The notes: generated by a model not told the origin, from the sequence alone. Shown: positions 12,227 to 23,149, numbered from the stretch's first letter. The stretch: 32,000 bases of DNA from Alkalilimnicola ehrlichii MLHE-1 (GCF_000014785.1 NC_008340.1:450001-482000); one strand, 5' to 3'. Numbers and translations are program-made.

Positions 12227-12272
12227 CCCACGCCCACGACCGGCGAGGGCAGCGAACCTGGAAAATGCCGGC

Positions 12273-12475
12273 GGGGGTTGCGGTCGAGGTGGTGCGATGA
12301 TCGGGCCGGGCGACTTTGCGCACCGAGCAACGCAGTAAAAAGGCGGAGAAAAGGCGCGCCTGTCCGAGCGAAGCGAGTTCGCGCCGCCGCCTTTTTACGA
12401 GTAGCGCAGGGGACCCCGAAGGGGTGCGCAAGTGGAGCCCGGCCCGATCATCGCACCACCCCGACCGCAGCCCCC
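12273..12475. repeat. nested-hairpin repeat element, copy A (38-nt arms plus 127-nt core)
   Basis: Arms 12273-12310 and 12438-12475 are inverted repeats, pairing at 36/38 positions plus one G-T. The core 12311-12437 is the reverse complement of 17975-18101 and differs from it at only about 15 of 127 positions, roughly half of them in the few nucleotides at the two core termini. Lies in the tldD-pmbA spacer. Confidence 0.8.
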
Positions 12476-12503
12476 GCAATCAGCGAAGCCAAAGGACAGC
12501 GGA

Positions 12504-17834: not shown

Positions 17835-17927
17835 GGGCCGCTCCCGGGTTGGGCGGTGACAAGCGAATGATTGCCAGGGCCTGCCTCTAGGGTAGTCGGG
17901 TTTTGCCGCCGGGTCGCTTGCCGGGCC

Positions 17928-18148
17928 GAGGGGTGGTGTTGCTGCCGGGGCGGGGCGGTTAATGCCGTCAGGCCTCCGGATTGCGCACCCCTTCGGGGTC
18001 CCCTGCGCTACTCGCAAAAGAGCGGCGGCGCGAACTCGCTTCGCTCGGACAGGCGCGCCTTTTTTCCGCTCTTTTGCTGCGTTGCTCGGTGCGCAAAAGT
18101 CGGCCTGACGGCATTAACCGCCCCGCCCCGGCAGCAACACCACCCCTC
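17928..18148. repeat. nested-hairpin repeat element, copy B (47-nt arms plus 127-nt core)
   Basis: Arms 17928-17974 and 18102-18148 are perfect reverse complements (47/47). The core 17975-18101 is homologous to the reverse complement of 12311-12437. Lies between the ilvD stop and the dehydrogenase start. Confidence 0.8.
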
Positions 18149-18154
18149 CCCCGG

Positions 18155-20008
18155 TCAGTCCAGCAGGTCCAGGTTTCGCACCGCGCCCTTGTCCGCGCTG
18201 GTGGTCAGCTTGGCGTAGGCTTTCAGGGCCGTGCTGACCTTGCGCTGGCGGGGGGCGGCGGGCTTCCAGGCATCGCGGCCCTTGGCCGCCATGGCCTCGC
18301 GGCGGCGGGCCAATTCCTCGTCGCTGATATCGATGCGGATGCTGCGCTTGGGGATGTCGATGCAGATCCGGTCGCCCGGCTCGATCAGGGCGATGTTGCC
18401 GCCCTCGGCCGCCTCCGGGGAGACGTGGCCGATGGACAGCCCCGAGGTGCCGCCGGAGAAGCGGCCGTCGGTGATCAGCGCGCAGTCCTTGCCCAGGCCG
18501 CGGGACTTGAGGTAGCTGGTGGGGTAGAGCATCTCCTGCATGCCCGGCCCGCCCCGCGGCCCCTCGTAGCGGATGATGACCACATTGCCCTTCTTCACCT
18601 GGCCGCCGAGAATCCCCTCCACGGCGGCGTCCTGGCTCTCGAAGATCACCGCCGGCCCTTCGAAGGTGAGGATGGACTCATCCACCCCGGCGGTCTTCAC
18701 GATGCAGCCCCGCTCGGCCAGGTTGCCGTAGAGCACCGCCAGCCCGCCGTCCTTGCTGTAGGCGTGCTCCAGGGTACGGATGCAGCCGCACTCCCGGTCC
18801 AGGTCCAGTTCTTCGAAGCGGGTGGACTGGCTGAAGGCGGTCTGGCTGGGGACGCCGGCCGGACCGGCCTTGAAGAAGTCGTGCACCGCCGGGTCGTCGG
18901 TGCGTTTGACGTCCCAGCGTTCCAGGGCCTCGGCCAGGGTGTCGCTGTGGACCGTGGGCACGGTGGTGTCCAGCAGGTTGGCCCGGTCCAGCTCGCCGAG
19001 GATGCCCATGATGCCGCCGGCCCGGTGCACGTCCTCCATGTGAAAGAGCGGGGTGGCGGGGGCGACCTTGCAGAGGTTGGGCACCTTCCGGGAGAGCTTG
19101 TCGATGTCGACCATGTCGAACTTGACCTCGCCCTCCTGGGCGGCGGCCAGCAGGTGCAGCACCGTGTTGGTGGACCCGCCCATGGCGATGTCCAGGCTCA
19201 TGGCGTTGCGGAAGGCGGACCGGCTGGCGATGTTGCGCGGCAGGCAGCGCTCGTCGTCCTGCTCGTAGTAGCGCCGGGCCAGTTCCACCACCGTGCGCCC
19301 GGCATCGCGGAACAGGCGCTCGCGGTCGGTGTGGGTGGCCAGCAGCGAGCCGTTGCCCGGCAGGCTCAGGCCCAGGGCCTCGGTGAGGCAGTTCATGGAG
19401 TTGGCGGTGAACATGCCGGAGCAGGAGCCGCAGGTGGGGCAGGCGGAGCGCTCGTAGATGGCCACGTCCTCGTCGGAGACCTCCGGGTTGGCCGCGGCCA
19501 CCATGGCATCCACCAGGTCGGTGGCGATCTCCTCGCCGCTGGCCAGCTTCGTCTTGCCCGCCTCCATGGGCCCGCCGGAGACGAACACCACGGGGATGTT
19601 CAGCCGCATGGCGGCCATCAGCATGCCGGGGGTGATCTTGTCGCAGTTGGAGATGCACACCAGCGCGTCGGCGCAGTGGGCATTGACCATGTACTCCACC
19701 GAGTCGGCAATGATGTCCCGGCTGGGCAGGCTGTAGAGCATGCCGTCGTGGCCCATGGCGATGCCGTCGTCCACGGCGATGGTGTCGAACTCCTTGCCCA
19801 CGCCGCCGGCCTTTTCGATCTCTTCGATCACCAGCTGCCCCAGGTCCTTCAGGTGGACGTGGCCGGGGACGAACTGGGTGAAGGAGTTGGCGACGGCGAT
19901 GATGGGCTTGTCGAAGTCGCCATCCTTCATGCCGGTGGCCCGCCAGAGGGCGCGGGCGCCCGCCATGTTGCGACCGGCGGTGGACGTCTTGGAGCGATAC
20001 TGCGGCAT
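18155..20008 (-). CDS. ilvD: dihydroxy-acid dehydratase
   Basis: 617 aa with the IlvD signatures [12 protein letters not shown] and [11 protein letters not shown]. Full-length collinearity with enterobacterial IlvD. Confidence 0.97.
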
Positions 20009-20107
20009 GGTTGACCTCTGCGTTCGGGATTTCGCGGTTAGCCGTCCATTATTGGGTTTTGCGGGGCTGAGGGGAACCCCTTACCGCCATCGACCAGTGG
20101 GAAAGCC

Positions 20108-20380
20108 GTCACTGCCAGCAAAGCTGGAGTGGCAGTCCAGGGCCTGTGGATCGCCGCGTCGCTGCGCTCCTCGCGATGACGGGGGTGGCACCCCCACCCG
20201 TCACTGCGAGGAGCGAAGCGACGCGGCAGTCCATGCGGCGCCTGGATCGCCCCGGGCCTGCAGCCCTTGCGATGACGGGGGTGGCACCCCCACCGTCACT
20301 GCGAGGAGCGCAGCGACGCGGCAGTCTACCGCTCTGGATCGCCACGGGCCTTCGGCCCTCGCGATGACGGGGAGGGGGTC
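20108..20380. repeat. REP/BIME-like array 1: alternating palindromic modules, about 3 units
   Basis: Recurring modules are GTCACTGCGAGGAGCG(A/C)AGCGACGCGGCAGTC and GGATCGCC(A/C)CGGGCC(TTC/TGCA)G(G)CCCT(C/T)GCGATGAC, joined by the small hairpin GGGGGTGGCACCCCCACC. It is the same family as 22756-23149 in the opposite orientation. Confidence 0.75.
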
Positions 20381-20431
20381 TTCAGCCCGCACCCGCAGGC
20401 CGCGTGGCGGCATCTCCGGCCGCCAGACGTC

Positions 20432-22737: not shown

Positions 22738-22755
22738 GCAAGCGCTGGATTGGCC

Positions 22756-23149
22756 GTCATCGCGAGGGCCGAAGGCTTTCCCCGTCATCGCGAGGGCCGA
22801 AGGCTTTCCCCGTCATCGCGAGGGCCGAAGGCCCGTGGCGATCCATGCGGGGTATGGACTGCCACGTCGCTGCGCTCCTCGCAGTGACGGTGGGGGTGCC
22901 ACCCCCCGTCATCGCGAGGGCCGAAGGCCCGTGGCGATCCAGGGCGGTAGACTGCCACGTCGGCTTCGCCTCCTCGCAGTGACGGTGGGGGCGCTACCCC
23001 CGTCATCGCGAGGGCCGCAGGCCCGTGGCGATCCAGGGCGGTAGACTGCCGCGTCGCTTCGCTCCTCGCAGTGACGGGGGGATGGGTTCGCTCCTCGCAT
23101 TGATGGGTGGGGACGGGTTCGCTCACTCGTAGTGAGTGACGGTGGGGGG
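22756..23149. repeat. REP/BIME-like array 2: two 28-bp half-units, three 94-96-bp full units, then degenerate copies
   Basis: GTCATCGCGAGGGCCGAAGGC starts at 22756, 22784, 22812, 22908 and 23002. Full units add CCGTGGCGATCC...GACTGCC(A/G)CGTCG...CTCCTCGCAGTGAC plus a G/C-tract hairpin. Decayed copies run from about 23085 to 23149. Confidence 0.75.

Follow-up and report, generated by a model that had tools for sequence, protein, structure and literature searches.

Copy-specific, self-complementary arms around a conserved core in an intergenic hairpin repeat of Alkalilimnicola ehrlichii

Bacterial interspersed repeats are usually recognised by their termini, whereas a hairpin-forming repeat in a 32,000-nucleotide stretch of Alkalilimnicola ehrlichii MLHE-1 (NC_008340.1:450001-482000; the whole stretch is referred to here as the window) is recognised by its conserved interior, with termini that vary. 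One copy of ~240 bases, termed here copy B, lies between two A. ehrlichii genes, i.e. ilvD, the product of which matches this species, and a gene for a GSDH-type dehydrogenase; a second, copy A, lies between tldD and pmbA, the two being within 6 kb of each other and both solo units. The arms differ between the copies and are, within each copy, wholly or nearly complementary, which raises the question of what makes and maintains the complementarity of arms that are apparently free to change. The available evidence is that the repeat belongs to a family with at least 48 members; we tentatively favour, at somewhat less than even confidence, the proposal that it is a mobile hairpin element akin to repetitive extragenic palindromes (REPs) and miniature inverted-repeat transposable elements (MITEs), with a closing helix that is free in sequence and kept Watson-Crick by strand-switch copying at the DNA level.

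Core and arms of the family

The initial annotation described copy B as a 127-nt core within arms complementary over 47/47 nt, and both BLAST (17928-17974 against the reverse complement of 18102-18148, 47/47 identity) and a repeat finder bear this out, the latter extending the pairing to 56 nt (17919-17974 with 18102-18157, 127 nt between them) at 93%, with four mismatches. The arm sequence given in that annotation agrees with the window. As RNA, the copy B unit is predicted to fold at -180 kcal/mol (z = -14.7, versus dinucleotide shuffles) and copy A at -153 kcal/mol (z = -11.6); the core alone, from either strand, folds to a rod. Over 117 nt, core B (17981-18097) and the reverse complement of 12315-12431 in copy A are identical at 94% of positions, and the three changes between the copies in stem P2 are all compensated (GTAAAAAGGCGG/CCGCCTTTTTAC in A, GCAAAAGAGCGG/CCGCTCTTTTGC in B). 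Both copies are non-coding, with spurious open reading frames (ORFs) only, and a full-sensitivity covariance-model scan found no third copy in the window. Copy B is real and not an assembly artefact, because the independent complete genome of a second A. ehrlichii strain (CP184336.1, locus L012) has both copies at the same sites, and because short-read contigs (L001, L013) break inside the arm.

Scanning metagenome contigs with one 20-mer of the core gave 54 loci, ~40 of which have the full architecture, and a covariance model made from a 23-member alignment recognised 48 distinct members (E<=1e-6) in the loci gathered, core B scoring 111.7 bits. The order of parts is a closing stem, CCCCTTCGGGGTCCCCTGCG-YTRCTCG and a variable stem in the 5' part, an apex with conserved AACTCG and CTCRGACA on either side of a variable hairpin, and the variable-stem complement, CTGYG-YTRC-TCGG and closing-stem complement in the 3' part. 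These fold into a rod of P1, a side hairpin (CCCCTTCGGGGTCCCC), a short GYTRC/GYTRC helix, P2 and the apical AACTCG-hairpin-CTCRGACA motif. In the 23-member consensus rod compensatory change occurs at 17/27 pairs; the short helix, which was unexpected, joins two GYTRC motifs that have the appearance of direct repeats, with CG in 14 sequences, UA in nine and none broken.

The 48-sequence alignment has 92.7% of its stem cells paired, compared with 67.5% for column shuffles and 40-44% for slid partners, and both sides change at 21/27 pairs. The view that a conserved core is closed by a helix that varies yet remains self-complementary, first put forward for the two copies in the window, now extends to 48 members with heavy compensated change. 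The core-stem cells (n = 1085) comprise 983 Watson-Crick pairs, 14 top-strand G-U (1.3%), 32 A-C (2.9%; equivalent to G-U on the bottom strand) and 56 other mismatches (5.2%), with nine of the 32 A-C cells coming from one pair. Wobble is rarer than plain mismatch on both strands, unlike in curated RNA families.

At gathering thresholds Rfam 15 gave no match in the window or in 13 related loci, and at E<=10 returned only generic long-hairpin microRNA models, far under threshold. The core had no BLAST match among 72,556 plasmids (PLSDB), was absent from viral contigs and was not matched by exact sequence in the literature; it is a widespread family without a description found in Rfam or by exact-sequence literature search. 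All members looked at are intergenic, tens of nucleotides from gene ends, in co-directional or convergent contexts. Copy A has the bottom strand of the core on +, as are tldD and pmbA, and copy B has the top strand on +, with ilvD and the dehydrogenase gene on -, which confirms that the same core strand faces the flanking transcripts at both copies. That this orientation might be fixed did not survive tabulation: the window copies and L032 are alike, and the family occurs in both orientations to transcription and as inverted pairs.

The long arms pair at 47/47 positions in B, 39/41 in A, 37/37 in L022, 36/36 in L029, 34/34 in L061 and 25/25 in L032, and are Watson-Crick at 218/220 pairs, as against 90.6% for the internal stems of 9-12 bp. 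Selection on stability cannot keep arms cleaner than internal stems, because one mismatch in a 47-bp helix costs almost nothing, and a process that writes the exact complement explains the arms more economically. Fresh mismatches are seen as polymorphisms, between strains in an arm of copy A and between samples in an arm of L029, so that correction, if any, is not instantaneous.

Between copies the arms are 42-63% identical, versus 82-91% for the junction and core. Alignment of A, B and the closest metagenome relative (L022/L030, from Kulunda soda-lake sediment) outward from the core reveals a common junction loop, TCCRR / AAGTC, the P1 stem TKGCGCA and, 18-21 nt further out, a common block, G[CT]CGGGG[CT]GG[GT]G, in which 9/12 columns are identical (shuffle p = 0.006). 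L022/L030 appears to sit at another locus, upstream of a radC-like gene (named from its translation). The B and L022 arms are identical at 19/23 nt (p = 0.0015), those of A and L022 give p = 0.055, and for the A and B arms alone the similarity is not significant. The statement in the initial annotation that the arms have only GGTGGTG in common was overstated, given the block that is in register in A, B and L022; the outcome that it had termed diverged termini holds in so far as the arms are homologous and diverged, to which must be added that each copy is still self-complementary. As judged from these alignments, the arms are apparently inherited with the element, diverging several times faster than the core.

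Filled sites, empty sites and host sequence at the arm tips

The genome of the second A. ehrlichii strain is 99.3-99.9% identical to the window over the region; its copy B differs by one base, in the outer imperfect extension, and its copy A by one arm substitution. Alkalispirillum mobile has the same gene order as A. ehrlichii (ILVD protein 97% identical, DNA ~80%), and there both sites are empty: the copy B site reads ilvD-TGA-aacggaggggcggccc-ATG, with a 16-nt spacer, and the tldD/pmbA spacer is of 22 nt. At neither A. mobile site is there an arm of either copy or a palindrome of at least 20 nt, and arms-only palindromes were found neither in the window nor in 22 kb of A. mobile. Because the A. 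mobile sites are empty and without arms, the arm-core-arm unit came after the split, with no earlier palindrome. The comparison of orthologous empty sites, which had been proposed as a means of deciding whether one, both or neither arm pre-exists, when run on A. mobile thus favours neither, only the outer tips being host sequence. The polarity of insertion rests on this one outgroup together with the multi-locus spread of the family, and the simplest history is of two insertions in the A. ehrlichii lineage, after the A. mobile split and before the two strains diverged.

Three further relatives (115 kb, reached via ilvD orthologues) have no copy, and synteny there is broken. In distant relatives ilvD and the GSDH-type dehydrogenase gene are ~8 kb apart (L077:11855-19994 and L078:11855-19723, versus window 17835-18154), the interval holding patatin/Omp85, peptidase S9, HDOD and Mpo1-like genes; by this comparison of gene order, the ilvD-dehydrogenase junction is apparently derived, through a deletion in an ancestor shared by A. 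mobile and A. ehrlichii.

The ends of the palindromes merge into host sequence (Table 1). In the orientation of ilvD, copy B starts TGA-ccggg-GGAGGGGTGG, and A. mobile has TGA-aac-GGAGGGGCGG at that place. Orthologous host sequence makes up the outer 10 nt of the perfect arm B and the imperfect extension with the ilvD stop, and its complement is present on the far side; the outer part of the right arm (18139-18157) aligns with the A. mobile spacer GGAGGGGCGG and holds the ilvD stop codon (18155-18157, minus). The host sequence at the tips of copy B takes in this stop codon and the downstream ribosome-binding site. In copy A the tip that matches the A. mobile tldD end belongs to the pmbA-side arm, and the functional tldD end lies opposite, 44 nt from the tldD-side arm. 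Both sites have weak direct repeats of the target, of 10-13 nt, diverged and ~70% identical (CACCCGCGGCTGA / CCCCCGCAATCAG at A; GGAGGGGTGG / GGGAGCGG at B), with one copy inside the arm and 44-84 nt of unrelated DNA between the element and the other copy. The initial annotation had seen no target-site duplication; these repeats qualify that statement, although they are unconvincing as duplications.

The largest extension of a palindrome into its surroundings is in L029, from a soda-lake genome bin, where the flanks beyond perfect 36-nt arms are inverted copies of one another for ~70 nt (L029:1887-1992 and 2231-2340; z = 12). By the translations, from which the gene names are also taken, the duplicate takes in the final four codons and the stop of a cysK-like gene, and a convergent putA-like gene gains a ...DDEA* tail. 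Thirteen composite elements (see below) tested for flank duplication had none, the signal in L052 being another repeat module. The palindrome can extend into host DNA.

Table 1. Parts of copies A and B, with the positions of related composite units and H0 modules. Positions are those of the window unless a locus number (L) is given.
Feature	Position	Strand	Remarks
Copy B left arm	17919..17974		perfect 47 nt, 17928-17974; imperfect outer extension, 17919-17927
Copy B core	17975..18101	+	127 nt; CCCCTTCGGGG ('top') strand on +
Copy B core junction loop	17975-17980 and 18096-18101		TCCGGA opposite AAAGTC
Copy B core P1	17981-17989 with 18088-18096		
Copy B core side hairpin	within 17988-18003		
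Copy B core short helix	18007-18011 with 18081-18085		GCTAC with GTTGC
Copy B core P2	18014-18025 with 18066-18077		
Copy B core apical part	18026-18065		GGCGCG stem, loop AACTCGCTTCGCTCGGACAG, then T6
Copy B right arm	18102..18157		perfect part, 18102-18148; outer 18139-18157 host-like
Non-palindromic DNA beside copy B	17835..17918		~84 nt; from copy B to ATG (17834) of the downstream GSDH-type dehydrogenase gene
Copy A arm, tldD side	12271..12311		41 nt; two mismatches to partner here, one in second strain
Copy A core	12312..12436	-	top strand on minus; 94% identical to core B
Copy A arm, pmbA side	12437..12477		41 nt; arms 95% complementary
Copy A pmbA-side arm, outer end	12471-12483		CCCCCGCAATCAG, reaching 6 nt past arm end at 12477; aligns with A. 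mobile tldD end ACCCGCAACTAG
Non-palindromic DNA beside copy A	12227..12270		44 nt; between tldD stop codon and copy A; missing from A. mobile
Composite foldback units	L052:1810-3100; L038:1040-2340		also L066, L049, L050, L043, L046 and others
H0 + linker sites	L073:3001-3048; L075:1990-2520; L074:10230-10310		L073, Ilyobacter polytropus plasmid; L075, Burkholderia sp. THE68

The ~84-nt stretch beside copy B is missing from A. mobile, and nothing similar to it occurs in the equivalent stretch of copy A or in the flanks of L022. The extra DNA beside the copies (44 nt; ~84-95 nt) was tested as a possible part of the element or copy of the ilvD leader, and showed no significant similarity except for one 17-mer. 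This 17-mer, CCCCTCGGCCCGGCAAG (17917-17933, minus strand), is the outer imperfect end of the copy B left arm; A. mobile has the identical sequence upstream of ilvD, at 50-66 nt (L014:9935-9951), and the orthologous site in A. ehrlichii (20058-20074) agrees with it at 14/17 nt, so that the motif flanks ilvD on both sides. No homology continues past its ends, and its presence on both sides may go back to a donor site or to microhomology.

In the second strain an insertion sequence (IS; L012:12123-13696), coding for a DDE_Tnp_1_4 / DDE_Tnp_1 transposase of 439 amino acids, is inserted ~30 nt from copy B. Its CTAG target corresponds to ~17887-17890 of the window, and its ends are unrelated to the element.

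How the arms are made and kept

In the reading that we tentatively favour, that of a mobile hairpin element with arms maintained by copying, the 127-nt core would be the conserved module that defines the family, and the arms would be the outward continuation of its closing helix, travelling with the element and almost unconstrained in sequence. Intrastrand template switching, or snap-back copying across the hairpin, would make and restore the complementarity of the arms; it would give exact Watson-Crick partners, turn a change in one arm into a double change and let the palindrome creep outward into adjacent host DNA. Mobility would be via a single-stranded hairpin intermediate. We infer this copying mechanism, the mobility through a hairpin and the effect on the host that is considered below.

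The proposed copying has precedents in quasi-palindrome correction by intrastrand template switching and in snap-back tandem inversion duplications, as studied by Ripley, Lovett and Roth. Correction of this type perfects imperfect inverted repeats and copies flanking DNA in inverted form from a hairpin, and it would explain together the Watson-Crick-only covariation, the perfect arms, the host sequence at the arm tips and the flanks of L029. It differs from the present case in being a mutational mechanism and not a family of elements, and we know of no description of it as a routine means of upkeep or enlargement of the arms of interspersed repeats.

Several points weigh against the mobile element with copied arms. 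Only two host-genome copies were studied, no movement of the element is seen between the two A. ehrlichii strains, and the evidence for mobility consists of two filled-versus-empty sites, one outgroup and a multi-locus distribution, with no transposase or HUH partner identified. The arm homology statistics are moderate (p from 0.0015 to 0.055, in 21 pairwise tests), and extended inverted duplication of the flanks occurs in only one of seven long-armed copies, L029. Perfect arms would also be expected if each copy had arisen recently; the 44 nt and 84 nt of extra DNA beside the copies are not accounted for; and the excess of A-C over G-U in the core stems is to some degree compatible with a role of the co-transcribed strand as RNA.

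A further proposal, which we consider rather unlikely, is that the core is the seed of a self-extending palindromic element, a conserved and structured single-strand hairpin that moves between loci and afterwards sets off fold-back copying of adjacent DNA again and again. If so, each copy would build its own perfect arms, host gene ends would be duplicated in inverted form and the C terminus of a neighbouring product rewritten, as in L029, and the family would be widespread in uncultivated Proteobacteria-like genomes, with larger, cargo-bearing foldback units. It would then be a new class of non-autonomous mobile DNA, with its identity in the loop and not in the termini.

Also somewhat unlikely, in our view, is an ordinary MITE mobilised by a transposase, with terminal inverted repeats (TIRs) that have diverged between old subfamilies, a decayed target-site duplication of 10-13 bp and arms that are perfect owing to recent insertion. 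The small size, non-coding nature and multiple copies of the element (two in 6 kb; 48 members), its termini starting with TG (TGCCGGG / TGACCGG at B), the two empty A. mobile sites, the weak direct target repeats at both insertions and the in-register arm block all fit this explanation. However, the putative duplications are ~70% identical and the arms 95-100% complementary, and the age that decays the former should decay the latter; one copy of the 'duplication' lies within the palindrome and the other 44-84 nt of unrelated DNA away. Where MITEs have conserved TIRs, the arms here are the least conserved part (42-63% versus 82-91% for the core), the opposite of what binding by a transposase would need. 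No IS with matching ends was found in the window or in L012, the ends of the L012 IS being unrelated.

A cis-acting structured RNA, involved in processing, stability or termination and with the helix kept by selection on the transcript, is an explanation we regard as unlikely. It is in accord with the strong covariation, the very stable fold, the preponderance of A-C (G-U on the transcribed strand) over G-U by 32 to 14, and the presentation of the bottom strand to co-directional flanking genes by both window copies and by L032. Selection for a long closing helix regardless of its sequence was one of three possibilities raised in the initial annotation; the covariation agrees with it, whereas the near absence of G-U on either strand (wobble is at ~1-3% of cells, below other mismatches) and arms more perfect than the short stems do not. 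Perfection at 47/47 is beyond what selection would maintain when a single mismatch is nearly neutral. Neither tolerance of G-U on one strand nor a fixed orientation was found, relatives occurring as convergent inverted pairs, between convergent genes and around cargo genes; no Rfam family is recognised even at E<=10, and promoter and terminator scans gave no consensus sites.

That the core alone is mobile, and that each insertion builds its arms by inverted duplication of adjacent target DNA, the second possibility raised, is improbable as an account of the whole arm, though apt for the tips. In arm B the ancestral spacer and ilvD stop account for the outer 10-20 nt, with the complement on the far side, the tip of arm A matches the ancestral tldD end, the ~70-nt flanks of L029 are inverted duplicates that include a gene end, and templated synthesis fits the perfection of the arms. 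The bulk of arm B, i.e. its inner 37 nt, has by contrast no counterpart in the A. mobile target or in adjacent coding sequence; a 23-nt segment of it recurs in the arm of a copy that belongs to another organism and another locus; across loci and organisms, B, A and L022 have the in-register arm block and the junction loop in common; and 6/7 long-armed copies have no extended flank duplication. On these comparisons inverted duplication of the target appears to be ruled out as the origin of the whole arm.

The third possibility, that the core inserts into the loop of palindromes already present, is very improbable. A precedent is offered by REP dimers that are reported to lie regularly within longer palindromes in Anabaena variabilis and Halothiobacillus neapolitanus (Di Nocera et al. 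2013, PMC3733652); the large host-sequence palindrome of L029 has a symmetry axis that coincides with the element, and REP hairpins abound downstream of ilvD in the intergenic DNA of relatives. Against it, A. mobile has 16-nt and 22-nt spacers with neither arm nor palindrome, arms-only palindromes are absent from the window and from 22 kb of A. mobile, and the conservation of the junction loop and arm block speaks for movement of the arms with the core.

Composite relatives, known systems and neighbouring repeats

At ~15 metagenome loci the core is present as a convergent inverted pair, formed by two distinct variants 60-300 nt apart. Each paired core is preceded by a linker, AAAGAAAAGGCGACCCC, a hairpin termed H0 (GGTTACTTTCTTTTG...CAAAAGAAAGTAACC), which has covariation of its own, and a CGTC-like hairpin, so that the paired modules make foldback units of 550-650 bp in total. 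Two of these composite units (L052 and L038) enclose a small cargo ORF with no Pfam match; homologues of the L052 ORF are hypothetical proteins on plasmids of Aquicella, Methylobacterium, Photobacterium and Pseudomonas. No transposase is recognisable between the paired copies of L066 or in the cargo ORFs of L052 and L038, and none was found inside or beside any composite unit.

H0 alone is repeated in replicons of Ralstonia, Burkholderia/Caballeronia, Variovorax, Pasteurella and Ilyobacter. Together with the linker (GTTACTTTCTTTGC..GCAAAGAAAGTAACCAAAGAAAAGGC) it occurs in unannotated intergenic DNA in 124 Ralstonia records and at up to 19 places per replicon in Caballeronia/Burkholderia. A 530-bp foldback in Burkholderia sp. 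THE68 is bounded by the H0 module and has another interior, which lacks the core. The H0 module looks like a cross-phylum repeat, Ilyobacter being a fusobacterium, and was matched to no known family.

Elements comparable in setting to copies A and B are the Correia elements (CREE/NEMIS) of Neisseria and the ERIC/IRU elements of enterobacteria, hairpin MITEs that are co-transcribed with genes and the transcripts of which contain a long duplex that can be cut by RNase III or can alter mRNA stability. Like the copies here, these are non-coding inverted-repeat elements of 100-250 bp between genes of one transcription unit. By contrast their TIRs are conserved, their interior is variable and they have a defined target duplication (TA for Correia), the reverse of the present arrangement; no sequence similarity was seen, and the host lineage is another. 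By analogy, copies A and B would be co-transcribed inside operon-like gene pairs, and the RNA duplex of 41-47 bp could be a substrate for RNase III or a stabiliser of 3' ends. Expression of tldD-pmbA and of ilvD-dehydrogenase, genes that were 16-22 nt apart in the ancestor, has likely been uncoupled.

REP, REPIN and BIME elements are thought to be mobilised by RAYT tyrosine HUH transposases. They resemble the present family in being non-coding intergenic hairpins near gene ends, between co-directional or convergent genes, in having stems with compensated changes, and in that relatives occur as inverted dimers foldable into larger hairpins, in mosaics with other hairpin modules. The palindromic arms of REPs are conserved, whereas here a multi-stem core of 110-140 nt carries copy-specific arms of up to 56 nt. 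A REP unit measures 20-40 nt and bears a conserved GTAG or CGTC tag (PMC3733652); the core has several stems in 127 nt and no GTAG/CGTC tag at its ends. No RAYT gene is present in the window. In relatives a Y1_Tnp (RAYT-like) gene lies directly upstream of ilvD (L015:73-603, L078:9081-9623), and these genes come without the element described here.

Integron attC sites are likewise set by a folded single-strand hairpin, and their copies vary while staying self-complementary. In attC, however, it is the short terminal core sites R''/R' (RYYYAAC...GTTRRRY) that are conserved, around a variable middle, and attC sites follow cassette ORFs in arrays near an integrase; the window copies are conserved in their interior, and their context, between housekeeping genes with conserved neighbours in A. 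mobile, is not cassette-like.

If a conserved interior with variable termini is indeed the rule for this family, repeat finders and MITE annotators keyed to terminal repeats would miss it. If the proposed strand-switch copying is correct, the arms would be a natural read-out of the rate of palindrome correction and extension in vivo, and the 48 members would be a data set for separating the constraints of a DNA hairpin from those of an RNA structure.

Some minor observations concern the apex of the core and the surroundings of ilvD. An apical 20-mer, CTCGCTTCGCTCGGACAGGC, gave 10 exact matches among GTDB representative genomes, all in unrelated genomes (including L002, L006, L007, L009 and L010) and none in that of A. 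ehrlichii; these are taken as chance matches, above a rough length-based expectation of a handful and otherwise without similarity to the core. Several of them have 21-23 nt in common (ACTCGCTTCGCTCGGACAGGC), among them a tandem repeat of 128 nt in a genome bin of Clostridia and sites in candidate-phyla-radiation (CPR) genomes, two of which look tRNA-adjacent.

The DNA of ilvD is 94% identical between A. ehrlichii and A. mobile (18155-20080 versus L014:9929-11854), with neighbours at 79-87%. A recombination tract that ends at the element was considered and set aside as the less probable reading, the high protein conservation (97% of amino acids, with extreme GC content at third codon positions) being judged enough, and the high DNA identity probably results from strong conservation of the protein.

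Upstream of ilvD, at 20106-20386 and 22754-23112 of the window, are two REP-like arrays of CGTC-type hairpins (CCCCGTCATCGCGAGG...CCTCGCGATGACGGGG), with a spacing of ~92-96 nt and mutually inverted. These arrays bracket four small genes and bear no relation to the arms of either copy.

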